From the IMG/VR virus record IMGVR_UViG_3300030419_002557, positions 8,077 to 72,076 of that record: a DNA stretch of 64,000 nucleotides; one strand, 5' to 3'. Positions within the stretch are counted from its first letter, which is position 1. The number at the start of each line of letters is the position of its first letter. This DNA comes from a virus. The position numbers and the translations under genes are program-made. Of the stretch, positions 6,001 through 42,245 are shown piece after piece. A model generated the notes under the pieces. The model searched no databases, was not told the origin of the DNA, and worked only from the letters and a program-made list of their open reading frames with translations.

Positions 6001-8843
6001 CAGATGCCTATATGGTAATACAAGAGGGTATCGCCAGGCGTCTTGAGATTGCAGATCAACATGCAAGAATCATCATGGAGGGCATGGGTGGTTCTCCAGA
6101 ACAGAAGGTAAAGCTTTTTAGGACTGGAGATGGTCAGCTTTCCACAATCAACAGAGACAGAGCTATTCGCCTTTATGACAGCTTTTATAAAGGCGAGTGG
6201 GGAGCGCTTCTTGACCAACTGGCAAGAGAAGGGCTGTCAACAGGTACTGCCCTGAAGTATCCGGGCAAGTTCAACGTCCTTCACGCAATGCTTGAGACAG
6301 TGATTCGATTGAGGGCTCAAAGCATTTTTATGGACTTGGTCAATGACATGACCGACATGGGTATGTCTGTTCGCATTGAGGACCTGGCTCCAAAAGACAT
6401 CACCAACATGGCCGAAAAGCGAGCCTTTGCTCAGCGCGTAAAACTTTACCTCAATGAGGAGCTTAAGTTTGGTGGCCCGCTTCAAATAGTGGACGAAACT
6501 GGACGAGTTTATGATGCAACAGAAGCATTCGAGCGGGTCAGAACTGAGCCGCTAACTGGACAAAAGATCCAGGGGGCCGGGCCAGGCGCAGAAGATTTTT
6601 CAAGAGAAGCGAGGGCGAGAGCAAGCAAAATCGGTGCCTACAAGCCTATTCATGAAAGAATGGGCGACGTTATTCATAAAACAAAAGTTCACGATCTCGA
6701 AGCCTTTACGGTCGCCACACAGCTAATCGAGCAGTGGGGAATGAAGATTGGCGCTAACATTGAAAACTGGGAGTTGGTGAGGTTTGCGGACGGTTCCGAG
6801 GCCCTGGTTCCAAAGCTTCTTCTTGATGAAGTTCAAGACGCTATGGACAGGGTTGCTGGTCAGGCTTCTGCAAGACAGGGAGTCACCAGCCGCTATCGTT
6901 TGCAGCCGAAAGGCTTCTATGAAGGGTTCCTCCCAGAGGTCGGGCAGCCCCCACTGAAAACAAAAGCAAAGGTTTTTGTTGGCGATGCGATCAACTTGCT
7001 GAGCAACTCATTCAATGTCAGCTATCGACTAATGAAAATGGGCCTTACGTCAGGGCTCTTCATAGTCAATCTCCCTTACTACATGGCAAACGCCTTTGGT
7101 GCTCAACTACAGACGTATCAAGCGCTTGGTTTGAAAGGGTATTTTTCCTCAATGAGTCGACCAATGCTGGCGTTAGAGATTTCCGCAGCTTTGTGGGGTG
7201 ACGCACCAACTATGCGGTGGACAAAGGTAAAGCCTGTTGTAATGCCGGACGGTACAGTCTGGACAAAAGAGTCTTTGACAAGAGCCGCTCACGAACACGG
7301 TTTGTCCGGCTCATTCCTGTCAAAAGAAACAGCAAGGACCGTTGCCGAAGATTTGAAGAAGAAAGAGCCTACCTTCTGGAACAAAATGACTGCCGCGCCA
7401 AAGTTCTATCACGCGCAGCTAATCAACTTTGCGACGTTCCTCGACAACTATCATCGTGTTGCAATCTTCGTTGAGCAGATCGGAAAAGGCGCTTCGGCAA
7501 GAGAAGCAGCAGCCGTGTCAAGGAAAGCGCTGTTTGACTATTCAGACCTCACTGACTTTGAAAAGAAATACATGAGGCAGATCTTCATCTTCTATTCGTT
7601 CCAACGAAAGAACATTGATTTGTTCTGGGACACCTTGTTGACCAACCCCCACAGGGTAATGGGGCAGTTGCGATTTGCCCGTGGTTTAAACCAGACCTTT
7701 TTGGATGGTGATGAACGCCTAATTGAAAGCGACTGGAGTCTTGGCCGCGTTGGTGTGAAATATCAAGATTTTGCAGCCAGCAGATTTGTACAGAAAGCAA
7801 GGTACAATGCGCCTATTTTTCCTGTTCAAGAAGCCTTGCGCGGACAATTAGACTTTCTTAGTTTTCTCGGCAGTTTTCTTCCTGGCGAGGGACTCATGGA
7901 AGGCGAGAAAAGAATGAAGGCACGCTTGAAGTTTTTAGGAAGGCTGAACCCTTGGCTTCAAGCGCCCTTAGCATTAACTCTCAACAAGACATTCTTTGGC
8001 GCAAGACCTATGAGGCCAGAGAGAATTCCGCTGTTTATGGTCCAGCATGACTTATTAACAACAGGTGGAATAGTGATGCGCTCAATCGGCGCTCAAGCCA
8101 AAGCATTGAAGCGATGGGAAGAGCAAGACTACCCAGGGCAAACACATGCATACTATGCCACAAACACCACCGCTTGGTATCTGTTGCAGAACCTGTGGCA
8201 TGGGCCGCTGCCGGTAATGCCTATGCGTGAGGACATTCCAGGCACAAGTAAGATTCGAAAGTTTGTTCCAGGTGGAGAAGCAGTTGGAGAAGCTCTCGAC
8301 CATATGCCTCTTGGATATGTGCTTCGAGCGCGTCCGCTCAAGGGATTGAAAGAGGGAACATTAAGTTACACCACTGCTGGTCGCATGATGGATACGATTG
8401 AGCGCCTAAACAGGGCGGGCGGTGGTGTTCTACGTCCAGATATTGTCGATGCTCAACTTAGAGCAGACATGGCGCACTACAAAGGCCTGGTTGAGTCTGG
8501 AAGAAGAGAGCCTCTCTTTGGCAACATTGGAGAAGAGGAACGCCTTACATCTCAGGAGCTAAACGCAGCAGGGTTCCGTGTTGATCCAGAAACTGGAAAC
8601 GTGGCGTGGCGTGATGACGCGCAAGGCGTTCCCGTTCGTGGGGCAAGAGGCCGACCAGGCATTCAGGAAGGTTGGTTGTCAATCGTGTTTAGTCCCCAAA
8701 AAATCTACACCGAAGAATATGCCATTCTTATGGAGCACTACCGCTATCGACAATTGCTTAAAGCTGCTTTGAAAAAGCAGTTTGCTGTAGACTATGACAA
8801 AGAAATCCTTGAAGGCCGATACATATCAGAAGGTAGTGACTAG
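3..8843 (+). CDS. Giant internal virion / large polyvalent protein, 5'-truncated; zincin HExxH motif, HhH-GPD glycosylase-like region, LPD38-like C-terminal region
   Basis: Frame open from nt 3; TALHELVHAATV at ~nt 132-167; LSMQT, PGMATKISAF and GALDIH motifs; ALFDYSDLTDFEKKYMRQIFIFYSFQRKN typical of C-termini of phage ejection/polyvalent proteins. Confidence 0.75.
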   Translation, partial: ATLSAHESRLRSVTRGLNWSPEGDAFNDVFLRGNKAYSGTTAETALHELVHAATVRRLSDGNLSANKGTALQKATSDIFDLRNQVVKIAKQAQKDKTLDPAIEDILIRATANEKEFVAYGLTNKTFQDYLMTIKVEDKSMWNVFVEKIADLLGVAKKDQNALTDLVRMTDELLDAPLEELPSRPLTEWLTLMEEPVGAAARAADDVEITVAAVGMRPEFMEAQLLMNRANEARKSRDAATNAGTRRMYQRQLDTANRRLYLLLEPDLKKALTEGLDPDVVQITNLTEAGGFERSLGAFADYAPEGGFYVTLKGPRDIILGRVAEYSRAYNQDAMLVRERIKTVDIDKTKPLIEQISFDDKGVQRGATARIVIPRAFEGKLAQAIMQTIAKNETGATIRLDTLEDGRGVIELVHVPEWIPAQYASVETFRDIVEKVAGDIKEHTKKKKLGDVEVTFEQESVYAVSHSRGAPDAANNPGLYEYWIERSRNQLRKQGRDAAPLFELAEEGVGTGPVTRGPRLQPGGDRPAVNGSNSLLDIPGAARRIGPEIRRVLNERDAFDSGHLSEELAAEFNVQSEIAGGTPHDIVDLEVDSGLKQRISLSEITPNQASEIKSRLGTANPLEDVSFDVEFTVERVTETPEGKVVERSKVSVPVFPVLKATDFAGAKGQKVLIPGGMEGTFSFSDVQYLARRPIEMILEEAATKWWDDLPKNDDGVNIFGKREDLGNYDEIMAQYKEAYSSMLDRMYDKLHNSYGLEKHRPKNEEIFDGGRFKSKEAKFQWEQEIEIHMMDVASQYVFAYLSMQTNLLDNQAFAAVVRPRSFADLSDMVNRYRTAKRNKGSDLDRDEANHILGFSLTLSEGVLKNRFGKKTKLADVETDILPIIQIHDWTKPGGPLITVQSVDIAPLNADKIAGKTRKALARYVKSKEKVAKKEALLARTKDASKRKRIRAELRAAIKEMQAADVQHQALLNSVSTQDVVQLTGDIALSSPANTTRLLEMYEMMHEDFLRVQKGELKHGFFERYPGEDWDAFSDRVSSMVPGMATKISAFGIYWQNPIAASIGALDIHMIGMIGPELFKEQRWLNKAEGWYRDWQSIKSDAAKKHLKEVAETALIRDTGTEPTKTAISKKAKEMLSSELKERARVSFEDFLSTGKSNPAYTFWREQLRGEITAPEKYLIHPTGVPEYKRAFDPKRIDSNKIKELLAAVKANKKLTPKQRKERTRKLERALFAHEHIENAQRMYGADHPIIQRFVKEARVTGSTVDVMSPEYKKVLDGLHSKSVDRDIFGDVATLQHRIWDEWRGYLDPHVIVHPGSAMLPAVRPAALKAVVKALEDSLPEIRDPRVQAELTRRHSRLTSGLFGRGFRELHSSFKEGRFGGTSPFEDRPLPTELSRGALYIADSSPPSSSLDVFLEGGSDMADFFNHGDLSSLFNRGSNALMMLLGEEFPMVMDIFVDKFDSIVADDGSRVLTERGFGELKESFSTYWHDGHVRDPRLDIAYDSVKDRLAVFWRRLRHSADRTNPGVRRFFDEWLGVLNDAKKEAMLDVKNSAEFKNIPKIQIEEFKPGQASELLETEQVAKRGRAREKARIDMDEGRIRYALGLTDEVTEVDAFSAMEKAVGYVATEMSRLKHTNHWVSFSTRSVVPARLLPKYLEEAQLRNYSVFGDPHVLKKQFERIPLERVKLDEFGEPVMDTPYGVVEPQPVMEVVTEVLPDGTERVVEIDVINLNELQQDRLKQLLIELAVDPRTKQLTQEVLGEYLLPNANLDQIPFKHYEFITQELLRDHVVGIGSGMTKEIKNVPRSLGFAAVQALMGPRGLGMFDNIQSLQKSLSQKFKTRAPLAHMGKNKDGKVRDGQVVSPIVQELFQRRMRQIDDIPNWIKRVQSALANRQNPAGVWEVIEGLQNVLEQPIHQHTYRVLDRLELLFMGEAKGINPNQVGDALDDIARAFADNRLMTKSERAAINLLRDFERIKILEPERTMVKGDKVYIKDPAQREAIADAYMVIQEGIARRLEIADQHARIIMEGMGGSPEQKVKLFRTGDGQLSTINRDRAIRLYDSFYKGEWGALLDQLAREGLSTGTALKYPGKFNVLHAMLETVIRLRAQSIFMDLVNDMTDMGMSVRIEDLAPKDITNMAEKRAFAQRVKLYLNEELKFGGPLQIVDETGRVYDATEAFERVRTEPLTGQKIQGAGPGAEDFSREARARASKIGAYKPIHERMGDVIHKTKVHDLEAFTVATQLIEQWGMKIGANIENWELVRFADGSEALVPKLLLDEVQDAMDRVAGQASARQGVTSRYRLQPKGFYEGFLPEVGQPPLKTKAKVFVGDAINLLSNSFNVSYRLMKMGLTSGLFIVNLPYYMANAFGAQLQTYQALGLKGYFSSMSRPMLALEISAALWGDAPTMRWTKVKPVVMPDGTVWTKESLTRAAHEHGLSGSFLSKETARTVAEDLKKKEPTFWNKMTAAPKFYHAQLINFATFLDNYHRVAIFVEQIGKGASAREAAAVSRKALFDYSDLTDFEKKYMRQIFIFYSFQRKNIDLFWDTLLTNPHRVMGQLRFARGLNQTFLDGDERLIESDWSLGRVGVKYQDFAASRFVQKARYNAPIFPVQEALRGQLDFLSFLGSFLPGEGLMEGEKRMKARLKFLGRLNPWLQAPLALTLNKTFFGARPMRPERIPLFMVQHDLLTTGGIVMRSIGAQAKALKRWEEQDYPGQTHAYYATNTTAWYLLQNLWHGPLPVMPMREDIPGTSKIRKFVPGGEAVGEALDHMPLGYVLRARPLKGLKEGTLSYTTAGRMMDTIERLNRAGGGVLRPDIVDAQLRADMAHYKGLVESGRREPLFGNIGEEERLTSQELNAAGFRVDPETGNVAWRDDAQGVPVRGARGRPGIQEGWLSIVFSPQKIYTEEYAILMEHYRYRQLLKAALKKQFAVDYDKEILEGRYISEGSD

Positions 8844-23326: not shown

Positions 23327-23402
23327 TGGGGCGTGGTCCAATTGGAAGGACGCCCGACTGTTACTCGGGAAGGTGGTGGTTCGAGTCCACCCGCCCCAGC
23401 CA
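23327..23402 (+). tRNA. tRNA-Asn (GTT)
   Basis: 76 nt cloverleaf: TGGGGCG/CGCCCCA acceptor, GTCC/GGAC D stem, CCCGA-CTGTTAC-TCGGG, GGTGG-TTCGAGT-CCACC, G73, encoded CCA. Confidence 0.92.
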
Positions 23403-34772: not shown

Positions 34773-35044
34773 TCTCCCTCGTAGCCCTGTGACCAGGGCG
34801 AGTAGCTGGTGTCCCACCCCTCCTCTTCAAGCTCCTCCTGCACCTCATTGGCGAAGTCGTAGAACTTTCTGATTCGGTCGTAGCTGTTGCTCAACAAGAC
34901 CTGCTCGGCGCGGTTCAGACACTCGTCTGCTCCGTTGTCGAAGGCCAAGTCGATGTTCGAGACCATGCCCATCAATCCGCTGATGAGTTCACCGAATCGG
35001 TGGTGGTCTTCAAAGTAGATCGCTTTCAAGTTCTTCTTGTTCAT
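34769..35044 (-). CDS. Hypothetical early protein
   Basis: Start MNKKNLK after GAGGCAAC. Confidence 0.55.
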   Translation of the reverse strand: MNKKNLKAIYFEDHHRFGELISGLMGMVSNIDLAFDNGADECLNRAEQVLLSNSYDRIRKFYDFANEVQEELEEEGWDTSYSPWSQGYEGE

Positions 35045-35063
35045 TGGTTGCCTCGTTGGTTGG

Positions 35064-35261
35064 TTAGAGTCCAGGTTGGCGAGCGTCGGCAGCAGCACAC
35101 CAGATGTCTTCTGGTACGCAGCTATGGTGAGCTACAATCCACCCACGGTCATCTTGCCCGACGAGCGAGCCTTGCCTTTCGCCTACCCTGCGCTTGCAGT
35201 AGCGGCACCAGCCTGCGAATTTGTTGCGTCGGAACGGGGTCTCACGGTCGATGCGGTTCAT
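35064..35261 (-). CDS. Small zinc-binding protein
   Basis: RNKFAGWCRYC...HHSC; GAGGCAAC upstream. Confidence 0.55.
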   Translation of the reverse strand: MNRIDRETPFRRNKFAGWCRYCKRRVGERQGSLVGQDDRGWIVAHHSCVPEDIWCAAADARQPGL

Positions 35262-35276
35262 TGGTTGCCTCTCAGG

Positions 35277-35600
35277 TTAGCCAGCGTTGAAGCTGGCAAT
35301 GATCACAGGGTTTTCTGGGGTGAAGTCAGCGACTCCGATCTTGGTCACCTCAAGTTGCTCCGGGTCGTCAACCCAGCCGTGGTACATGCCAGATCGTGGC
35401 TCAGTGGTCCCGTCTTGGAAGACCATCACCCATCCTGCCTTCTGGGTGCGATCCCACTTGCGGTCATCCCACTCGTGGTAGGGGCCGGGGTAGGTGTATC
35501 GAGCCTCGGTTTCATCGGTCGCAATGACGACGAATGAATCCCATTCATCGTAGCCACCGTTGTCAAGCCTCTTTACGAGGTAGATGTTCTTGCTGTTCAT
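35277..35600 (-). CDS. Hypothetical early protein
   Basis: YDEWDSFVVIA...EAR...IIASFNAG; GAGGCAAC upstream. Confidence 0.65.
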   Translation of the reverse strand: MNSKNIYLVKRLDNGGYDEWDSFVVIATDETEARYTYPGPYHEWDDRKWDRTQKAGWVMVFQDGTTEPRSGMYHGWVDDPEQLEVTKIGVADFTPENPVIIASFNAG

Positions 35601-35690
35601 TGTTGCCTCTCACTTAGAAAGACGATGCCCGCCCTGGTAGGCGGACAAAGTCTTTCAGTTTTTTTTTGATAGGCTCGCAGCCTATCGTTT

Positions 35691-36068
35691 TTATGCGGAC
35701 ACCACGGTCATCACCGCTGGGTTGGGTCCGAAGTTCCACACCAGTCCGTGCTCGGTAAGCACATCGAAGATTCTGTTCCAACCTTCGATGACCTCGGTGC
35801 CTTCGTAGGTCGGGTTGGGGATGTAGTCCTCGGTGAGGATCACCACCAGCGCATCCGGTTCCCACTGGCTGGGGTCCTCCTCTCCGAGGTAGGTGCGGTG
35901 GATGATGGCTGCACGCACTTGCTTTCTGAGGTGGGAGTGAGTGAGCGGTGAGCTACCGTCCTTGGTATCCAGTCCAAGGTCCGCAGCGATGCGTTCACCG
36001 AACTCGTTGTAGATGGCCTGCCTTACTTGGAGCAGCGTGTTTAGTTTATGGATCGATGGTTCAATCAT
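35691..36068 (-). CDS. Hypothetical early protein
   Basis: Start MIEPSIH after GAGGCAAC. Confidence 0.55.
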   Translation of the reverse strand: MIEPSIHKLNTLLQVRQAIYNEFGERIAADLGLDTKDGSSPLTHSHLRKQVRAAIIHRTYLGEEDPSQWEPDALVVILTEDYIPNPTYEGTEVIEGWNRIFDVLTEHGLVWNFGPNPAVMTVVSA

Positions 36069-36158
36069 TGGTTGCCTCGCTTGTTGAAAGTGGTGGGGGC
36101 ATCGCACCCCCAAGGACCGCTCGTGTCTTCTTGCCAGTGGTCTGTAGGCGGGTAGGGA

Positions 36159-36515
36159 TCATCCGGTGTAGACCATCCCTGCGGTTTCAAGGGCTTCTCG
36201 AAAGCCACCCTTCATCACTGAGCAGCCTTCTGCATACTGGGATGACACCAGCCAGATGTCCTGGTCAACAAACCAGAACAGGATGGGCCCTCGCTCGTAG
36301 TTGCAGGTGACCTCCCAGGCGGGGCCGCTGATCTCCTTGTAGCGGTAGTCGGGCGCTCCCCATGGGTCGGTGTAGTATTCCTTGACTCGCCTCTCCTCCT
36401 TCGGGTCGAAGCTCACATAGCAGGAGTCGTCTGGCATGCCTGCCTCTTTGGCGTTGGCACGCCATTCTGCTGCTACATGCTCGATCTTTTCCGGGGTAGG
36501 TGGTTTCCACTTCAT
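36159..36515 (-). CDS. Hypothetical early protein
   Basis: 118 aa, GGAG RBS. Confidence 0.55.
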   Translation of the reverse strand: MKWKPPTPEKIEHVAAEWRANAKEAGMPDDSCYVSFDPKEERRVKEYYTDPWGAPDYRYKEISGPAWEVTCNYERGPILFWFVDQDIWLVSSQYAEGCSVMKGGFREALETAGMVYTG

Positions 36516-36518
36516 GGT

Positions 36519-36650
36519 CTATTCTCCTGCGTTGTAAACGTGGTAGCGCCCATCCAACTCACGTTGGACGAACAAGGTTGCCCAGGCCGGGTGGTGGTCA
36601 CAGAATGTGATCGCTTCCCTGAGCGTCAAGAATGCTTTGATTGAATCCAT
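36519..36650 (-). CDS. Small hypothetical protein; not in ORF track
   Basis: 43 aa MDSIKAFLTLREAITF..., GGAG RBS, 3 nt from both neighbours. Confidence 0.5.
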   Translation of the reverse strand: MDSIKAFLTLREAITFCDHHPAWATLFVQRELDGRYHVYNAGE

Positions 36651-36653
36651 GGT

Positions 36654-36803
36654 CTACTCCCCCACTTGGTAGGTGAACTCAAGGTTCCCCCAGGTCAAGC
36701 GGGCTTCAAGCTCCGCGCGTCGACGTGTCGCAAAGCGACCGCCAAGGTTCTTGCCATTGAGAATCGCTTCCCATCTGCCGTGTCGTGAAATGATCGTGAT
36801 CAT
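36654..36803 (-). CDS. Small hypothetical protein; not in ORF track
   Basis: 49 aa MITIISRHGRWEAILNGKNLGGRFATRRRA..., GAGGCAAC upstream. Confidence 0.55.
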   Translation of the reverse strand: MITIISRHGRWEAILNGKNLGGRFATRRRAELEARLTWGNLEFTYQVGE

Positions 36804-36820
36804 TGTTGCCTCTTGGTTGC

Positions 36821-36900
36821 GGATCTATTAGATCCATTGACTGTATACTCAATAAAGGATCTATATATGGTGTGTGTGTTTATATATAGATCCTTGGATC
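36821..36900. repeat. AT-rich, GATC-rich inverted repeats
   Basis: GGATCTA-T-TAGATCC; AAGGATCTATATAT-N13-ATATATAGATCCTT. Confidence 0.7.
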
Positions 36901-36958
36901 AGTATAGAATCCAGGGGTTAGGTAAGGGTTAGTGGTAGGGTCAGTGTGTAGAGCACTG

Positions 36959-37141
36959 TCAATGCAATGGCCATGGGGTTGCCTCCTTAGTTTCGAGTTG
37001 GATGATGTCGGTTGTTTCACAGATGACTTGGGCCTTGGCGTAGGCAGCCTTGGTCGCTATGCCCCAGGCAACTGCATACAGCAGGCCAGTGCGGACAGTA
37101 GGGTAGCCACCCAAGTGGTTCCAGGTTTTCAAGGTGTACAT
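36959..37141 (-). CDS. Small hypothetical early protein
   Basis: 60 aa, AGGAG RBS. Confidence 0.45.
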   Translation of the reverse strand: MYTLKTWNHLGGYPTVRTGLLYAVAWGIATKAAYAKAQVICETTDIIQLETKEATPWPLH

Positions 37142-37150
37142 CGTTCTCCT

Positions 37151-37171
37151 TGTGGATAAGCCTGTGGATAA
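37151..37171 (-). promoter_or_regulatory. Two tandem consensus DnaA boxes (TTATCCACA)
   Basis: TGTGGATAA at 37151-37159 and 37163-37171, intergenic. Confidence 0.65.
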
Positions 37172-37199
37172 GTCAGGCGGGTTGTTGACAATCTCAGTC

Positions 37200-37993
37200 T
37201 CAGTCAGCCTGTCAGCGTGGTGCTGCTCAAGCTCACGGAGACCGGCAGGACACCCTTAGTAGAGTGCCTGCTGGTTGCCTCCATTCCCCCCCACTGTTCC
37301 TCGGGGTGCCAGGTGTCATCGTGACCTACTCGGACTTGGATGCACCGCCCGTCAATGGGCCGTGGGGGTCGTTCACCGCAACACATCCAGGCTATTTGAG
37401 GGTCTTCGCATGGTCGCTCGCCTCGCGGATCGGTCTCTTGCTTGCGTGTTCCTTGGCGTCGGGGCTCCTTGCAGGCACCGACCCTGTACTATGGCAAGCT
37501 CAACAGCAGCCCATCCTATGCCCCCTTCTCAGGGAGTCCCTATCACTATGGTGACCAGGGGGAGTGGGCTTTCACTCCTAACTCAGTCCGGCTTCCCTGC
37601 TCGAAAGCAGCATCCGGCTCGATGTGTTCAGCTTCTGTGCGCTACTGACTGCGTGTCTGGTCCCTCTCTACTTGCGGGGCCCGGTCTCTCACTTCTCGCC
37701 TACCCTTGCGGGGGTCTGGTACTCGGAGTGCTTAGGGGCGATCCGGCTTACGATAGCCAGGGTGCCTTGCAGTGTTCGCGATGTCAAAGAGCGTCACTCA
37801 CCCCCCGTAGGGGTCCGGTTCGTCGCCATGCTTGCGAGCCCCCCGGATATGGGGTCCATCTCTGAGCACTTCTCCGAAGAGCGCCGCCGTAGCTCAGGTC
37901 CTGCACCCCAGTTGGGGTTGGAGCAGCCTGTCGAGATGAATCATTGATGAGTGATTGAAAGAGCGTGTCGAGTGGGGTGTTTCCCAGCGACAC
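37200..37993 (-). ncRNA. Candidate large structured non-coding RNA (~800 nt; 3' end uncertain)
   Basis: No credible ORF; many hairpins whose loops read UUCG, UACG, GCAA and GAGA on the minus strand; sigma70-like promoter directly upstream. Confidence 0.6.
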
Positions 37994-37997
37994 AAGG

Positions 37998-38057
37998 ATT
38001 GTATCCGGTCTGCTTACACTGTCTAATCGATGTACTGCGAGGAAGTTGGGCTGTAAA
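37998..38057 (-). promoter_or_regulatory. Tandem leftward sigma70-like promoters
   Basis: TAGACA-N16-TACAAT and TTTACA-N17-TACATC with AT-rich UP-like region upstream. Confidence 0.6.
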
Positions 38058-38145
38058 CCCCTGGAATCATTGAATAAAAAAAATGCATTTTATTTGATTT
38101 TATTTTTGGTGCAGGCTCCCCGTCTATCGTTTAGCTTTTTTTCTT

Positions 38146-38184
38146 GTGTATTCATTTGCAATACACTCAAGCCTTAGTTATCAT
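38146..38184 (+). promoter_or_regulatory. Rightward sigma70-like promoter with palindrome over the -35
   Basis: TTGCAA-N17-TATCAT; GTGTATT-N7-AATACAC; ATG 7 nt after -10. Confidence 0.6.
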
Positions 38185-38190
38185 ACACAC

Positions 38191-38625
38191 ATGAACTTGA
38201 TTCTCGCCTTTGCTGCTCTCGACGCCGGGTCCCCCCGGCAACGGGCCCGGTGCGCCAAGACTGGACGATTCGTCGCCTGGTCCAAGGCTGCCCCGCTCCG
38301 TCGTGCTGTGGCTGGTCAGGTCTTGTTCGTTCCCCAGTCCCCCGCTGAGGCCCCCCAGGTCCCTGCCCCTGTGGCAGTGATTGACGAGGCCCCGGTAGTG
38401 GGGGGGGATAGCCCAGTGGCTGCTGCTGCTGCTGCTGTAGTCGATGGTGCTCGTCACCTGGTGGCTGCTGCTGGTCGCTGGTTCAGCCGGGCTGCTCGGT
38501 TGGCTGGGGCTGCTGCCCTTGCCGCTACCCTGGCCGCAGGTGCTGGCTGCATCGATGCCACCCCGGTCCAAGGTAGGTCAACCCTGGTCGACGGTCCCCG
38601 ATCCGCGCATGGGGGTGCCCCATGA
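38191..38625 (+). CDS. Ala-rich hypothetical protein, probably leaderless
   Basis: 144 aa; ATG at predicted TSS; ARCAKTGRFV; late hydrophobic stretch ending AGAGC. Confidence 0.5.
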   Translation: MNLILAFAALDAGSPRQRARCAKTGRFVAWSKAAPLRRAVAGQVLFVPQSPAEAPQVPAPVAVIDEAPVVGGDSPVAAAAAAVVDGARHLVAAAGRWFSRAARLAGAAALAATLAAGAGCIDATPVQGRSTLVDGPRSAHGGAP

Positions 38626-38774
38626 CGTAGCAGCGGCGATCCCCTTGACTCGCACGGCCCCACCCGCATCGGTGGCGGGGTGCCGACCTCTGATCCCCGG
38701 GGGTGGGGGGGGGAGGCCCAACAATCGTCGCGGTGAAGCCCGAGGGAGGGGGGGGATAACCCATATAGGGTTAA

Positions 38775-39647
38775 TTATGAGCGTTTACGCATAGCGTTCA
38801 TCAGTTCGAGCCACTCAGGCATCTTCACAAGCTTTAGGCCACCATCGAGGATTGGAAGAGGCTCTGGAGAGTAGTGAGCGTGCGTAATCGTCGAAATCCA
38901 GGCCAAAGAGCCATTGTTGTTGCGTTTAGGCCGCTGTAGGCGTCTTCTAAGCGAGAAGTTCAATGGACCCCAAGCAGGACAGTTGGTGTGCCATGGATGA
39001 GCCATTCTGCCGACTGTTCCACCGTGTTTTACCAGCCAATCGCGACCAATAGTGTTGCGTATACTGTCTCTGCTCACACACCAGGCTCCTGTGTGCGATT
39101 TGTTGGACTTATCCATAAGGTTATCCATACCTCTCCAATACCTACAAGTAGAGCAGTTTTTGCCCTGTACACGGTTGGCTTCGCGAGGATCTAAGGGGTC
39201 ATTTGGCGATATTTGCCACCAAACCACACCAATAGAGCGCCAACGGCACTTTTTCGCCTGTCTTGGACGCAAACCAGCAGCCCAGCGACGAACGTCATAA
39301 GCACGCTCTAAGGCTCCGTTTTGAGCCATTACACGCACCAAAGGGCCAACAATCTTCTCCACATAGCGCTCTTTGGACAGCGTCATGGGTGGTGCAGCGA
39401 TGATTCTGCGTGCGTTGACGACCTCATGGACTTCAAGGCCAAACTGGCGAGCAAGCTTGGCGTCAGGCCACATGCCAAGCAAGGCTATGAAGTCTTTGGT
39501 GCCTGCTTTGGCCTCAAGCTCGTCCAAGAATGAGTGGATGACATCGTGATGGTCAGCGCAGACCCAATCAACGTAAGGTCTGTCGTGACGAGTCCGATTG
39601 TTAGCGAACTCTTTTGCCCACTTACGAACCTTCAGGCGCTTCTTCAT
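38775..39647 (-). CDS. Hypothetical protein with Cys-rich C-terminal region
   Basis: 290 aa; LLGMWPDAKLARQFG HTH-like; CSTCRYW...WC...CPAW. Confidence 0.6.
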   Translation of the reverse strand: MKKRLKVRKWAKEFANNRTRHDRPYVDWVCADHHDVIHSFLDELEAKAGTKDFIALLGMWPDAKLARQFGLEVHEVVNARRIIAAPPMTLSKERYVEKIVGPLVRVMAQNGALERAYDVRRWAAGLRPRQAKKCRWRSIGVVWWQISPNDPLDPREANRVQGKNCSTCRYWRGMDNLMDKSNKSHTGAWCVSRDSIRNTIGRDWLVKHGGTVGRMAHPWHTNCPAWGPLNFSLRRRLQRPKRNNNGSLAWISTITHAHYSPEPLPILDGGLKLVKMPEWLELMNAMRKRS

Positions 39648-39810
39648 CGAAGACCTGCTTGACCCTAACCTCGACGATGACTCGACTTACTTCAGGGTGA
39701 TCAATCAAAACGAGAGAGTCTCGAAGCCTTGTGACCACTTCATCAGTGATGTCACTCATCTTGTTGACTGTCTTCATTGCTGAGCGAGTAACAGAAGGCA
39801 TTATGCCCAA
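39622..39810 (-). CDS. Hypothetical protein
   Basis: 62 aa, overlaps both neighbours. Confidence 0.45.
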   Translation of the reverse strand: MGIMPSVTRSAMKTVNKMSDITDEVVTRLRDSLVLIDHPEVSRVIVEVRVKQVFDEEAPEGS

Positions 39811-40031
39811 ATCCCTTCTTCTGGCACAATGACATCAAGCCAAGCCATCGTAGCGCCAACCAGGCGTAGTTCGAGGCTTACTTGAAGAGCATCGAGAGCT
39901 TCATCGACGCTGTTTCCTTCAGCCACGACCTCATCATCCTCAATGAGCGCAAAGGTTCCGTCTTCTCGTTCTTGGAGAAAGAAACCCTCTGCAAGGTGAA
40001 CAGTGTTTATGTCTTCCTGTAGTGAGTTCAT
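39801..40031 (-). CDS. Hypothetical protein (HicB-like VAEGNSVDEAL motif)
   Basis: GGAGG RBS before MNSLQ. Confidence 0.5.
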   Translation of the reverse strand: MNSLQEDINTVHLAEGFFLQEREDGTFALIEDDEVVAEGNSVDEALDALQVSLELRLVGATMAWLDVIVPEEGIWA

Positions 40032-40084
40032 TTCTTTCCTCCCTTCTTCTTGCCTTTGCATTTGTAAACCGGCATGTTCTCTCC

Positions 40085-40351
40085 TTATGATTCTCCGTTC
40101 TCACCAGTCCAGATGACCTGTTTGTCTTCATCGAGACCCAAGTCATCCATGTAGAATGGATCAAATTTGCTGGTCGTATCGGTGACATCGTAGACGACAT
40201 CATCGAGTACGCTTGCTGGATTGTGTTGAAGCTCTTCAATCACAGTAGCGAAGGCGTCTTCGACATCATGAGACTCGACAGCGAGCCTGATGGTGAATGT
40301 GAATAGCTTGGGTGTTTTTTCGCGCATTGTCTTGGTAGAAGGATAACGCAT
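40085..40351 (-). CDS. Hypothetical acidic protein
   Basis: 88 aa in operon. Confidence 0.5.
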   Translation of the reverse strand: MRYPSTKTMREKTPKLFTFTIRLAVESHDVEDAFATVIEELQHNPASVLDDVVYDVTDTTSKFDPFYMDDLGLDEDKQVIWTGENGES

Positions 40352-40534
40352 TTAGTCACCCTTCTTTGCACCAAACAACGATGGAGTTGCATCAAAGTCT
40401 TCTTTGAGCTTCCAGTGTTTGGGAGCATTGTGAAAGGCACAAACGGCTTTCCATTCTCCTTGTCGATTGACAACGACATCAGAGAGCCGCTTGCAGCCTT
40501 CTATTTCACATTCGCCTGGCTTGTCATCAGCCAT
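40352..40534 (-). CDS. Small Cys/His zinc-binding protein
   Basis: CEIEGC...VCAFH, coupled to methyltransferase. Confidence 0.5.
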   Translation of the reverse strand: MADDKPGECEIEGCKRLSDVVVNRQGEWKAVCAFHNAPKHWKLKEDFDATPSLFGAKKGD

Positions 40535-41174
40535 CGTACTGATCGAAATGCCACGAGAAAAACTTCTTACTGTTTTTCCCATCACCTTGTCTGAAGACCA
40601 AGATTGCCGAACCCTTCGGTGCGCTTGATGCTTTCGAGCCATCTTCACGCAAGAACGGGACACGGCCTTTCATCAGACGAATCTGGTCAGCTTGCCAAGC
40701 CCAGTTGTGCCACCAAATGGTATCGGTGCAAGCCATGACGAGCATGACAACCGTTTTCCCTTTGAGTGACTCTTCCCAACCTTTCCTGACCCAATCACCA
40801 ACGCTTCGACCGTAAGGAGGATTGACGAAGATGCTTTGACCTTCCCAGTCTTCTAGAGCGAGAGCATCGGTACGAGAACCATCTTCATGGTCAGGACCGT
40901 AATAGCTGTCGAGAAGAGCAGTATGTTTTAGGGCAGCAGCATCGAGTTCGAATCCAAACTCACGGTTGAGTCGATCAAACAGAGGCTTTGGCGTTCGCCA
41001 AGTGTCATTCTCTGATGAGTGGATTGCTTTCCAAGCTGGAGACTTCTCCGCTTTCTTTGGAGCGGCTTTAGCCTTTGGCTTAGCAGGAGCCTTTGCTTTG
41101 GCCTTTGCGGGTGCTTTGGCTTTGGCTTTTGGCTTAGCGGCTGGTTTCTTGGCTGGTTTCTTAGCAGTTGGCAT
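40527..41174 (-). CDS. Phage DNA N6-adenine methyltransferase (phage Dam family) with histone-H1-like N-terminal tail
   Basis: WRTP, FELDAAA, FVNPPYG, TDTIWW, GRVPF; N-terminal KKPAKKPAAKPKAKAK. Confidence 0.9.
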   Translation of the reverse strand: MPTAKKPAKKPAAKPKAKAKAPAKAKAKAPAKPKAKAAPKKAEKSPAWKAIHSSENDTWRTPKPLFDRLNREFGFELDAAALKHTALLDSYYGPDHEDGSRTDALALEDWEGQSIFVNPPYGRSVGDWVRKGWEESLKGKTVVMLVMACTDTIWWHNWAWQADQIRLMKGRVPFLREDGSKASSAPKGSAILVFRQGDGKNSKKFFSWHFDQYDG

Positions 41175-41183
41175 CGTATCTCC

Positions 41184-41600
41184 TTAGAACGGAACTTCTT
41201 CGTCCCAATCGTCATCTACATTAACAGATTCGGGTGTATACGAAGCTTGTGGCTTCTTGTAGGAGTTGCCTTGAGAATCGCCTTGCTTGGTGTTTTTAGC
41301 CAAGAACTGTACTGTAAACGCGACAATCATAGTGTTTGAGCGTTCCTGACCGTTCTTGTCAGTGTACTTTTGGGTCTCGATACGCCCTTCAACGAAGACC
41401 GTTTGCCCTTTAGTGCAGTATTTGGCGAGAGCTTCGCCGGTTTTACCGAAAGCAGTGCAGCGATGCCACTCTGTTTTCTTTTCCCCACGCGAAACAGACG
41501 TGGTTGCTACGGAAAAGCGACAGTAAGACGTACCGCTTTTGCCAGTTTGAAGTTCGGGATCGGCACCGAGGTTGCCGAGAAGAAATGCTTTGTTTACCAT
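41184..41600 (-). CDS. ssb: Single-stranded DNA-binding protein
   Basis: NKAFLLGNLGADPE, TEWH, KGQTVFVEGRI, acidic DEEVPF tail. Confidence 0.96.
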   Translation of the reverse strand: MVNKAFLLGNLGADPELQTGKSGTSYCRFSVATTSVSRGEKKTEWHRCTAFGKTGEALAKYCTKGQTVFVEGRIETQKYTDKNGQERSNTMIVAFTVQFLAKNTKQGDSQGNSYKKPQASYTPESVNVDDDWDEEVPF

Positions 41601-41655
41601 TTTGGTTTACCTCCACCGAAAAGCTATCACATGGTGCAAAGTATGCACCCAGCCC

Positions 41656-41671
41656 GTGACAAATCGTGACA
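41656..41671 (+). promoter_or_regulatory. GTGACA-N4-GTGACA direct repeat in ssb/terminase divergent gap
   Basis: GTGACAaatcGTGACA, same 10-bp spacing as early-region sites. Confidence 0.55.
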
Positions 41672-41690
41672 TTTCCGGTAGTTTGGAGAC

Positions 41691-42245
41691 ATGGAAGATG
41701 TAAAAGAGAAGCCTTTGGTTTTCGATGGCGAGCCGATGTCTGCATTGTTGAACGGACAGCTTGTGAAATCGGAGCCGAACGAGGTCATTAAGCGAGAGGC
41801 TGAGGAACTTGTAGGATTCACGCCTACAGAACGCATGGAAGTGATGCAAGCTATTGCTATTACATGTGAAGAACAGGGCCTTGGTTACTTGAGAGACTGG
41901 ATAAAGTCGGCCCGGAGTCATGATTTCTTCCGAAAAGAGGCCTTTTCCATGAAGGAATGGAACGAATGGGTTGAAATTAAGGGGTTTAACGGGTGGTTTT
42001 ACGGTGGATTTCCGCTTCCCAGAACGATGTCGAAAGAGGATATTGAGGGCTTAGATGCGCTATTTTGGGACCAAATGCGTACAATGATGCGTGATGGGGA
42101 CACGAAGGTGATGGATTTGTACGCGAAGATCACGGGTAAGACCGACCGAGCGCCGGAAGAAGCGGAGACCAACACCGAGATTGTTGAGTGGCTGCAAGTG
42201 AATGCTGGTTCGGTGGGTTGGAAGTCTGTTCGGAAGTTGAAATGA
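41691..42245 (+). CDS. Putative terminase small subunit
   Basis: Helical 184 aa protein coupled (ATGA) to terL; positional call. Confidence 0.45.
   Translation: MEDVKEKPLVFDGEPMSALLNGQLVKSEPNEVIKREAEELVGFTPTERMEVMQAIAITCEEQGLGYLRDWIKSARSHDFFRKEAFSMKEWNEWVEIKGFNGWFYGGFPLPRTMSKEDIEGLDALFWDQMRTMMRDGDTKVMDLYAKITGKTDRAPEEAETNTEIVEWLQVNAGSVGWKSVRKLK

Follow-up and report, generated by a model that had tools for sequence, protein, structure and literature searches.

Does the region at about positions 37,200 to 38,057 of the window (the whole 64,000-nucleotide stretch of the virus record IMGVR_UViG_3300030419_002557 analysed here) encode a folded RNA, a protein, or something that acts as DNA? An earlier note, made from the sequence alone, had proposed that a large and highly structured RNA of no known family is transcribed from its minus strand, and had described the region as the longest stretch without a credible gene. 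This last description is not mechanically demonstrable because a spurious frame of 196 codons (37275-37865, plus strand) crosses the region in G+C-rich DNA, but that frame is neither kept in relatives nor matched in Pfam. In a Pfam search with 5 frames of the region no match was obtained.

The promoter TAGACA-N16-TACAAT, which the note had placed before the RNA, was located there, with 10 of 12 matches, and is the best of 6 promoter-like sites in the 6.8 kb between 35000 and 41800. One of the hexamers TACAAT, TACATT or TACTTA occupies the same position in 10/11 full-length rows of alignment A4, L011 being off register. The further claims that the RNA heads the early transcription unit and is made first in infection are unproven. 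Co-oriented genes stand upstream (at 38775-41600: SSB, methyltransferase, an 86-aa ORF and a 290-aa ORF), and the RNA heads only a sub-unit extending from about 37993 to 35647-35626. No terminator for the upstream gene was found in 38600-38790. The 290-aa upstream protein has only 5 close relatives and no match in Pfam, PHROG or phage records; its AlphaFold model has a mean pLDDT of 38.9, and the scores of its atlas look-alikes, helix-turn-helix families, lie at 0.75-0.79, under the meaningful level. The divergent 144-aa ORF has no Pfam or PHROG match, is preceded by a TTGCAA-17-TATCAT promoter ending 6 nt ahead of its ATG, and its N-terminus recurs in 7 of the 11 loci covering that place. Just upstream of the RNA, at 38058-38190, there is a conserved A+T-rich tract with divergent promoter-like sites. 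On the other side of the RNA, neither a terminator nor a recognisable processing site was found before the 60-aa next gene, which has weak matches to DUF7170 and phrog_4653. This gene is co-transcribed with the RNA, judging from the lack of a terminator in between, the transcription itself being inferred. Inside the unit headed by the RNA no terminator was found before the minus-strand terminator-like site at 35647-35626, with which a plus-strand one at 35667-35687 is paired.

When motif coordinates were rechecked, every hairpin listed in the earlier note was present at its place on the minus strand (Table 1). The CUGAGC/GCUCAG stem exists as well, but it competes with a GGCRC/GUGCU helix that is backed by relatives (helix 7 of the 5' domain). 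On the minus strand, UNCG or GNRA loops cap seven hairpins whose stems have 3 bp or more, versus 1.95 +/- 1.41 in dinucleotide shuffles, 1/500 of which reaches 7, and three whose stems have 4 bp or more, versus 0.64 in shuffles (10/500); the corresponding plus-strand counts are 5 and 1. Only some of the tetraloops stay tetraloops in relatives. For the minimum free energy, z values of -1.09 (2/20 shuffles as good) or -1.95 (1/40) were obtained on the minus strand and of +0.39 or -0.36 on the plus strand. Folding is therefore weakly better than that of shuffled sequence (z -1.1 to -1.95), but folding no better than shuffled, which would have refuted the proposal, was nearly what was observed. 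The thermodynamic signal is weak and not convincing alone, and the case is carried by covariation, not by folding energy.

Twelve other distinct copies were identified, in 3 IMG/VR records and on 9 further metagenome contigs, all within one clade of uncultivated marine phages of ~70 kb. Including the window, 13 distinct copies remained after the same-contig duplicates L006, L007, L008 and L013 had been dropped together with L016 (identical to L002), and their sizes range from about 690 to 875 nt. The family profile (nhmmer) matches the window at 38003-37173 (equivalent to L001 2344-1514); a pattern scan of metagenome contigs returned 14 stretches, of which this profile matches 11 and misses 3. 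Two pattern scans of viral contigs gave known relatives only, a scan of genome contigs gave 2 stretches, neither of them matching the profile, and blastn in its distant mode with 37100-38200 found no match in 50,697 phage records. Searching via the neighbouring SSB gene led to 11 loci, and the 7 distant ones (39-47% identity) gave no match to the RNA at E<=10. The 827-nt gap of L030 was rejected as a homologue, being unrelated and A+T-rich with an apparent tRNA-like stretch when read by eye. The phages of this clade also carry a giant ORF with weak likeness to the N4-type virion RNA polymerase.

Conservation of pairing in these homologues was analysed for three domains. In the 3' domain (alignment A5, 13 sequences), 17/41 pairs had changed on both sides versus 1-6 in slid controls, 97.6% of 533 cells were paired versus 84.5% in shuffles, and the covariation score was 0.452 versus 0.07-0.10. 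For the core (alignment A7, 10 sequences), two-sided change was detected in 12/63 pairs versus 0-2 when partners were slid, with 98.4% of cells paired and a covariation score of 0.193 versus 0.03-0.05. The 5' domain (alignment A6, 9 sequences) showed two-sided change in 15/39 pairs versus 1-5 in slid controls, 86.3% of cells paired, and a covariation score of 0.286 versus 0.05-0.10. When the three domains are pooled, 44 of the 143 predicted pairs have two-sided changes, and slid controls do not exceed 6 per domain. The shuffle control of the pair counting ignores relatedness, whereas the slid control corrects for it. From these data it is evident that pairing is kept by compensatory changes. 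Because the 13 copies represent one narrow clade in which some copies are 94-98% identical to one another, these changes correspond to fewer independent events than the cells counted. MAFFT misaligns parts of the 5' domain and of the type-B core, and for this reason the structure model remains partial there. A scan of all column pairs for pseudoknots or long-range pairs gave one uncatalogued 4-bp candidate, in which GACA of the 5' domain pairs with UGUC just after hairpin A with three two-sided changes; it was not counted because about half a million column pairs were tested and there are two main lineages, and no pseudoknot or tertiary contact was established. Internal domain duplication was indicated only by 6 short two-copy families of 71-85% identity, taken as chance.

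A conserved reading frame in the place of conserved base pairs would likewise have refuted the earlier proposal, and the reverse was observed: pairs are kept, no frame is conserved, the longest open frame differs from copy to copy, and indels are mostly not multiples of three (15/18 between the window and L005, for example). Although the window's copy has open frames, of 69-196 codons, that might suggest small or overlapping genes, the absence of a conserved frame and of Pfam matches together with the type of indels speaks against a coding function, and the excess of two-sided changes over slid controls speaks equally against a chance cluster of hairpins. We give these two explanations practically no credence and consider them already refuted as far as comparison can refute them.

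The minus strand is favoured as the strand that folds because G-U cells outnumber A-C cells (106 versus 21), so that 95.4% of cells are paired on this strand versus 89.7% on the other. It is also supported because UNCG/GNRA caps are enriched and because the promoter and flanking genes have the same direction. The strand asymmetry bears on whether the hairpins might function in single-stranded DNA, at an origin of replication or a packaging site or as promoters of the hairpin type for a virion polymerase. N4-type virion RNA polymerase uses DNA hairpin promoters, and the giant ORF as well as the A+T-rich tract with its divergent promoter-like sites would be compatible with such an element. We regard it as very improbable in view of the asymmetric pairing, the enriched UNCG and GNRA caps, and helices spanning about 250 nt that are kept by compensatory change, which are not known to us from origins or packaging sites. 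Comparative evidence from sequence thus identifies window positions 37993-37180 (minus strand) as the gene for a large structured non-coding RNA of about 814 nt, the transcript itself being inferred. As no RNA sequencing run was listed, expression, RNA ends, and processing are all inferred.

Table 1. Positions of the structured RNA, its parts, and neighbouring elements in the window, listed along the minus strand.
Feature	Position	Strand	Description
Divergent ORF	38191-38625	plus	144 aa; conserved N-terminal 40-57 aa, low-complexity tail
Sigma-70-like promoter	37998-38025	minus	TAGACA 38025-38020, 16-nt spacer, TACAAT 38003-37998; predicted start G37993 to G37991
Whole structured RNA	37180-37993	minus	~814 nt, from predicted start at first hairpin to CA-rich tail before next RBS
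P1, 5'-terminal compound hairpin	37965-37993	minus	Basal GUGUCG/CGACAC, apical GGG-AAACA-CCC
Conserved unpaired block ACGCUCUUUCAA	37955-37966	minus	ACGCUCUUU invariant, same in all 11 covering rows of A4
5' multi-branch domain	37857-37938	minus	Closed by CAUCUC/GAGAUG (MFE fold)
Enclosing stem CAUCUC/GAGAUG	37938-37933 / 37862-37857	minus	
CUC-UUCG-GAG hairpin	37881-37872	minus	
P3 helix UCCGG/CCGGA	37847-37843 with 37818-37814	minus	With inner UCGC/GCGA hairpin
CCCC-UACG-GGGG hairpin	37813-37802	minus	After P3
Conserved junction block CUCUUUGACAU	37781-37791	minus	UCUUUGA invariant in 11/11 covering rows
Optional peripheral domain	37648-37773	minus	126 nt; closed by ACUGC/GCAGU
CCC-GCAA-GGG hairpin	37712-37703	minus	
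Core domain	37376-37632	minus	Closed by 12-bp long-range helix, GCUGAACACAUCGAG with CUGGAUGUGUUGCGG
CUGCU-UUCG-AGCAG hairpin	37610-37597	minus	
CUCCCU-GAGA-AGGGGG hairpin	37536-37521	minus	
GCAA loop inside GUCGG/CCGAC	~37483-37458	minus	
3' junction domain	37286-37369	minus	Closed by ACCCCCAC/GUGGGGG; short CCC/GGG hairpin
3' end	37180-37281	minus	Conserved GAGGCAACC, hairpins A and B, CA-rich tail; based on helices 5-8
Hairpin A	37268-37249	minus	GGCACUCU-ACUA-AGGGUGUC; UUCG-capped in close relatives
Long hairpin B	37243-37196	minus	
Next gene	36959-37151	minus	RBS AAGGAG 37151-37146, ATG 37141, 60 aa
Terminator-like hairpin and T-run	35626-35647	minus	Likely end of the unit headed by the RNA

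The alignments reveal that the RNA is composed of separately closed domains, namely a 5' hairpin, a 5' multi-branch domain, an optional 126-nt domain, a core, a 3' junction, and two terminal hairpins, which are joined by short invariant unpaired blocks. P1 folds in 12/12 full-length rows (11 distinct, as L016 repeats L002) with differing basal stems (GUCAG/CUGAC, UGUC/GACA, GCC/GGC, UGUGA/UCACA, UGUCG/CGACA, UUGUUGA/UCAACAA, UGUGG/CCACA). The 5' multi-branch domain contains CCCC-AACU-GGGG and a GGCGC/GUGCU helix capped by CUC-UUCG-GAG; its homologous helices 3-7 covary in relatives, and the window's copy is shifted by MAFFT by a few columns. In helices 8-10 (the P3 region, 37802-37847) 96-100% of cells are paired, and P3 reads UCCGG/CCGGA, CCUGG/CCAGG or AUCGG/CCGAU depending on the lineage. 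The optional domain, with CUGGCU-AUCGUA-AGCCGG, CCC-GCAA-GGG and a conserved UAGAGAGGGACC loop, is present in 7/12 covering copies and cleanly absent from the other 5 (L005, L002, L019, L017, L020), so that the window's copy is a long form; its closing helix and inner hairpins covary, with 7/24 pairs changed on both sides. The core includes the conserved CUGCU-UUCG-AGCAG, an AGCCCA/UGGGCU helix, CUCCCU-GAGA-AGGGGG, GAGCUUGC/GCAAGC, a GCCUGCAAGG hairpin, and the invariant GGCGAGCGA. In the 3' junction domain a strongly covarying stem GGUGCAU/AUGACACC is capped by the conserved 20-nt loop CCAAGUCCGAGUAGGUCACG and followed by the conserved UGGCACCC; 6/8 pairs of helix 2 show two-sided change, and in type-B copies, whose rows were read by eye, the closing helix is CAAAGCG/CGCUUUG or GUAGAGCA/UGCUCUAC. 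Two-sided change was also detected in 8/13 pairs of helix 8 at the 3' end, including changes that distinguish the window lineage from all others.

A gathering scan of the whole window against Rfam 15 detected tRNA only. At E<=10 the region 36800-38400 gave 7 weak unrelated matches, and at E<=5 eight relatives gave 5 scattered matches, none of them recurrent. The comparison with GOLLD, ROOL, HEARO, group I/II introns, RNase P and tmRNA that the note had recommended thus yielded no family match; for the introns, RNase P RNA, tmRNA, HEARO and also OLE, this holds for Rfam searches with the window, the region and the 8 relatives, and ARAGORN found no tmRNA. No description of this RNA was found in the literature, in a search that did not extend to the supplement of PMC10690425, where 10,006 candidate structured RNAs, 8,495 of them from IMG/VR, are tabulated. 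These results show that the family, with 12 further distinct copies and no Rfam match, is uncatalogued. The central proposal of the earlier note, a large and highly structured minus-strand RNA of no known family, is therefore borne out by the additional copies, the compensatory changes in three domains, and the lack of a conserved frame and of an Rfam match.

GOLLD (RF01998) is a large many-helix phage RNA of unknown function in marine metagenomes, with many members >800 nt, a universally conserved 3' region, a less conserved 5' region, and a frequent location near tRNA islands (PMC12286853). The same source describes ROOL (RF03087) as an ornate phage or prophage RNA with a poorly conserved linker and no known protein partner or function, and reports that both RNAs turned out to be RNA-only nanocages, still without a known function (PMC12286853). 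The window RNA resembles GOLLD in being a large, many-helix RNA of a marine phage, and likewise its 3' half is best conserved. It differs in that no sequence or structure match to RF01998 was obtained at gathering, at E<=10 (region) or at E<=5 (8 relatives); moreover, whereas GOLLD is described there as often near tRNA islands, the window RNA is situated behind a promoter heading an operon of small genes, ~13.8 kb from the only tRNA gene in the window (tRNA-Asn, 23327-23402). With ROOL it shares the character of an ornate phage RNA of unknown function. Unlike ROOL, which is about 580 nt long, it has no RF03087 match, another genomic setting, and a position not beside tRNA genes. Membership among RNA-only multimers of the GOLLD and ROOL type would require homo-oligomeric assembly by way of kissing loops and A-minor contacts; no palindrome-switching loop was seen by eye in the alignments, without a formal count.

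Unpaired invariant blocks, a modular periphery, and a long-range closing helix belong to the general look of large ribozymes, and the window RNA has all three, its invariant blocks being located between covarying helices. It might accordingly be a ribozyme, or a degenerate self-splicing or self-cleaving element missed by standard models, which might free itself from the operon transcript. This seems improbable to us: no model of a group I or group II intron, RNase P or a self-cleaving RNA matched even at E<=10, and the RNA is not inserted in a gene, its flanks being separate complete ORFs, so that there are no exons to join. Two other ideas were rejected. A sponge for a CsrA-type protein or a ribosome decoy was not supported, as GGA, ANGGA, AGGAG and GGAGG show no enrichment in 5 copies. 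Mimicry of rRNA, to which a loop reminiscent of the sarcin-ricin module had pointed, was not supported either, since local alignments to the rRNAs of E. coli did not do better than shuffles (best scores of 16-25 for 23S, 16S and 5S rRNA; shuffle null mean of 24.1, determined for the window copy versus 23S only).

The main rival is a cis-acting leader, that is, a folded 5' UTR that acts on its own transcript by antitermination, as a shield against decay from the 5' end, or on translation of the first gene. HK022 put RNA, of ~70 nt and two stem-loops, makes RNA polymerase termination-resistant on a much smaller scale. Like put, the window RNA is structured and stands first in its predicted transcript, with a host-type promoter ahead of it and no terminator between it and the genes; unlike put, it is ten times larger, has five or six domains plus optional modules, and no antitermination target was found for it. 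The promoter common to the RNA and the downstream genes, the next minus-strand terminator-like site only at 35647-35626, and the stable hairpin at the very 5' end agree with a leader. So does the spacing, as in 13/13 copies 9-31 nt separate the last helix from the start codon of the next ORF, and the first downstream gene belongs to the same 59-aa family (3 relatives of the protein, no Pfam match) in 10/13 copies. However, in the remaining 3/13 a different 60-aa gene is found, and the window lineage has lost the 59-aa gene, of which there is no copy anywhere in its genome, and has kept the RNA. The 126-nt domain and a 51-nt hairpin come and go with flanking genes unchanged, the latter as an extra insert in L010, whose flanking proteins are 100% identical. 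No terminator to override was found inside the unit, and we know of no leader or antiterminator RNA that approaches 690-875 nt in five or six closed domains. On balance, a leader appears unlikely to us, without being negligible.

We favour action through the fold over a switch dedicated to a single downstream gene, because an entire domain is either there or missing, with a clean junction, because the insert in L010 occurs between identical flanking proteins, and because the first downstream gene differs, the window genome lacking the 59-aa gene. Our best guess is that it works by its fold and is made as the 5' part of an operon of small genes that measures 2.4 kb. Overall, a promoter-headed, domain-built RNA acting through its three-dimensional fold, as a stable RNA or an RNA-protein particle comparable to GOLLD and ROOL, whose binding partner and action are unknown, is the best explanation and in our judgement a reasonably probable one. 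Host RNA polymerase would start at the sigma-70-type promoter (38025-37998) and the RNA would fold during its own synthesis. Transcription is inferred to continue into ~1.5 kb of small genes, because there is no terminator behind the RNA, and would stop near 35626-35647. We can only guess that the RNA may be cut from the 5' end of the operon transcript within the unstructured CA-rich linker.

It is possible, and we offer this only tentatively, that a new class of large RNA machine of marine lytic phages is involved, either RNA-only or an RNA-protein particle (a multimer similar to the GOLLD and ROOL cages, or a ribozyme), which would be freed from the front of an early transcript and would have its target, of the host or of the phage, in trans. 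The optional peripheral domains would then be swappable functional add-ons, and the RNA would be one case of a wider, undescribed habit of marine phages to place large ornate RNAs directly behind strong host-type promoters. To our knowledge, few RNAs >500 nt other than those of ribosomes, introns and RNase P have an ornate fold that is well supported. With one more unrelated family, there would be more large natural RNA folds on which structures can be determined and RNA structure prediction can be benchmarked. The promoter of this RNA is clear, its place in a phage operon is fixed, and its modular design is clean, with natural variants that lack a domain. It would also be a tractable case for learning what such RNAs do for a phage, as its long, short and type-B natural forms are ready-made deletion mutants.

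The window carries the long form of a large structured phage RNA that is real, well supported and uncatalogued. An earlier note had read a minus-strand RNA of about 800 nt from the sequence alone, and all the hairpins, loops and stems that it listed were found on that strand at the proposed coordinates. The site from which it had transcription begin, TAGACA-16-TACAAT (38025-37998, minus strand), is the best promoter-like site within 35000-41800, with 10/12 matches (six sites in this interval versus 3.1 ± 1.6 in shuffles), and the predicted start, G37993-G37991, coincides with the beginning of the GUGUCG/CGACAC hairpin. The minus strand has seven UNCG- or GNRA-capped hairpins whose stem is 3 bp or longer, versus 1.95 ± 1.41 in shuffles, a count reached by 1/500 shuffles, and three whose stem is 4 bp or longer, versus 0.64; the plus strand has five and one, respectively. 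Folding energy by itself is weak evidence: the minus strand gave a z of -1.09, or -1.95 with exact ends (1/40 shuffles as good), and the plus strand +0.39 or -0.36.

Predicted features of the RNA and its surroundings (P1, 5'-terminal hairpin; P3, a helix)
Feature	Position	Strand	Remark
P1	37993-37965	-	5' end
Invariant block ACGCUCUUU		-	after P1 in 5'-to-3' order
Multi-branch domain closed by CAUCUC/GAGAUG	37938-37857	-	
P3 with inner hairpin, then UACG hairpin	37847-37802	-	
Invariant UCUUUGA block		-	between UACG hairpin and 126-nt domain
126-nt domain closed by ACUGC/GCAGU	37773-37648	-	
257-nt core, 12-bp long-range closing helix	37632-37376	-	holds invariant GGCGAGCGA
Junction domain closed by ACCCCCAC/GUGGGGG	37369-37286	-	
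GAGGCAACC and two hairpins	37281-37196	-	
CA-rich tail		-	RNA 3' end, after the two hairpins
SSB	41184-41600	-	upstream of the RNA
DNA methyltransferase	40527-41174	-	upstream of the RNA
86-aa ORF		-	between methyltransferase and 290-aa ORF
290-aa ORF	38775-39647	-	upstream of the RNA
144-aa ORF	38191-38625	+	between 290-aa gene and the RNA
Promoter-like TTGCAA-17-TATCAT	38156-38184	+	ends 6 nt before 144-aa ORF ATG
Small ORFs	36959-37141, 36654-36803, 36519-36650, 36159-36515, 35691-36113	-	downstream of the RNA
Terminator-like hairpins, back-to-back	35647-35626 (-), 35667-35687 (+)		mark end of RNA-headed unit

Through the 290-aa protein, four IMG/VR contigs were reached, three of which carry related RNA sequence in the corresponding position, whereas the fourth stops 269 nt past the 290-aa gene. 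Metagenome contigs were scanned with a degenerate pattern made of the blocks common to all four copies, and 11 of the 14 stretches obtained matched an nhmmer profile of the RNA family; L012, L015 and L022 did not. A similar pattern gave only two chance matches in 185,579 prokaryotic genomes, and seven more distant phage loci found via the SSB gene (39-47% identity) gave no RNA match. Once duplicates of contigs already included (L006, L007, L008, L013) and L016, identical to L002, were dropped, 13 distinct copies remained, window included, which look marine from record names and IMG/VR sample types.

Pairing within three alignments of these copies is far better than in slid controls, in which pairing partners were shifted along the alignment.

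Pairing and covariation in the alignments (slid-control ranges in brackets)
Domain	Paired cells	Shuffle mean	Two-sided changes	Covariation score
3' domain, A5 (13 sequences)	97.6% of 533 (34-53%)	84.5%	17/41 pairs (1-6)	0.452 (0.07-0.10)
Core, A7 (10 type-A)	98.4% of 630 (34-47%)	93.7%	12/63 pairs (0-2)	0.193 (0.03-0.05)
5' domain, A6 (9 sequences)	86.3% of 336 (26-51%)	78.3%	15/39 pairs (1-5)	0.286 (0.05-0.10)

The first hairpin of the 5' domain scores only 34% because MAFFT places it out of register; folded singly, it forms in 12/12 full-length rows (11 distinct), and its basal stem occurs in seven variants other than the window's. The stem at 37346-37312, which surrounds a conserved 20-nt loop, is paired by lineage as GGUGCAU/AUGACACC, GGCCAUC/GAUGAGCC, GACCCGCG/CGCCGGUC or GGCGGCA/GGUAUCGCC. 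Since the copies belong to a single clade, with three of them 94-100% alike, counted cells overstate independent events; the slid controls retain this relatedness and still fail. Pairing is strand-specific: 95.4% of pairs are intact on the minus strand versus 89.7% if read on the other strand, because G-U cells (106) outnumber A-C cells (21) in the predicted pairs. Most indels have lengths not divisible by three (15/18, 15/19 and 25/31 for the window against L005, L002 and L004), no open frame common to the RNA copies was found, and five frames of the stretch had no Pfam match. By all these sequence comparisons, the stretch is a folded RNA and no protein gene.

The predicted architecture is modular, and three forms were distinguished. 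The long form occurs in the window, L018, L010, L009 and L014, whereas in the short form (L005, L002, L019, L017, L020) a clean junction stands where the 126-nt domain is missing. Type B (L004, L011, L021) keeps this optional domain, has a reduced core and an extra junction-domain hairpin and, from alignment rows read by eye, closes the junction domain by CAAAGCG/CGCUUUG or GUAGAGCA/UGCUCUAC in place of the window's closing pair. The flanking proteins of L010 are 98-100% identical to those of the window, the upstream four being identical; its RNA has a 51-nt extra insert, and most other differences between the two also lie in the RNA.

The source virus record (72,076 bases, of which the window takes up 8077-72076) is rated complete by CheckV and the phage has no cultured relative, the best identity of its large terminase being 25.9%, to Roseobacter phage CRP-7. 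A giant ORF (3-8843, plus strand), open at the window start and hence no shorter than 2,946 aa, has no Pfam match; its single match, weak and partial, covers residues 39-179 and is to phrog_2206, the N4-type virion RNA polymerase family. The tRNA-Asn (GTT) gene at 23327-23402 (plus strand) is the window's sole tRNA and only Rfam gathering-level match. Genes around the RNA lie on the minus strand, and the order SSB, methyltransferase, 86-aa ORF, 290-aa ORF, RNA is kept wherever contigs extend far enough, with the 290-aa gene upstream in 8/8 loci reaching it. The 290-aa protein, with conserved motifs rich in Cys, His and Trp, has only five close relatives, no match in Pfam, PHROG or phage records, and an unusable AlphaFold model (pLDDT 38.9).

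The 144-aa ORF, divergent and flanked by the 290-aa gene and the RNA promoter, has no family match; its arginine-rich N-terminal 40-57 aa are conserved in 7/11 loci covering the place and its tail is variable and rich in Ala, Gly, Pro and Val. Its mRNA may be leaderless, given how close the promoter-like site ends to the ATG; an inverted repeat, GTGTATT-N7-AATACAC (38166-38146), overlaps the -35 hexamer. The start of this ORF (38191-38343, 150 nt) is 96% identical in protein to L005 7274-7423, with only few bases differing by eye, whereas the adjacent 290-aa gene has 72.7% DNA identity between the two. As contigs also break near the RNA and many metagenome contigs are short, this suggests a mosaic, recombining region.

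GOLLD and ROOL, two large and ornate RNAs of phages whose function is unknown, are nearest in kind; GOLLD is conserved in its 3' part and variable in its 5' part, and tRNA islands are often close to either RNA (PMC12286853). The RNA described here matches neither Rfam model and is not near its phage's single tRNA gene; thus it is no member of either, though it could, like them, work as a multimer. A full-text literature search returned no description of such an RNA, but did not cover the supplementary tables of PMC10690425, which possibly hold an overlapping model; that source reports 8,495 predicted candidate structured RNAs from IMG/VR, each with at least three matching regions.

The RNA is followed by no terminator-like site ahead of the next gene, and since the first on the minus strand lies at 35647-35626, the RNA probably makes up the leading 0.8 kb of a transcript some 2.4 kb long. 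In 13/13 copies a start codon follows the last helix by 9-31 nt, an arrangement in which the RNA could be a cis-acting leader. In 10/13 copies the following ORF, starting 9-17 nt after the RNA, encodes a clade-only 59-aa protein family; the window, L010 and L018 lack this gene, have a different 60-aa gene with a weak DUF7170 match, and the window-lineage last hairpin (3' domain helix 8) differs in sequence with its pairs kept. No copy of the 59-aa gene was found across the window's whole genome. The protein (for example L004 4373-4552, at the same place in nine other loci) ends in a DPATDEF-like motif in most copies and has no Pfam match; among 5.8 billion proteins it has only three relatives. 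It may be a partner of the RNA.

Conservation of the promoter-like site and of the multi-domain fold is established, as are the fixed genomic position and the absence of a terminator behind the RNA. That the host polymerase transcribes the RNA together with the small downstream genes, and that the RNA acts through its fold, is inferred. Its size, its separately closed domains, invariant unpaired blocks and whole optional domains, and its indifference to the following gene are typical of RNAs that do their work through folding, and to our knowledge gene-specific leaders do not look like this. For these reasons we lean towards an RNA functioning as a folded particle, which might be released by a cut in an unstructured linker and might have protein partners, and regard the cis-acting leader as possible but unlikely; a ribozyme, a DNA element or an error share what little remains.
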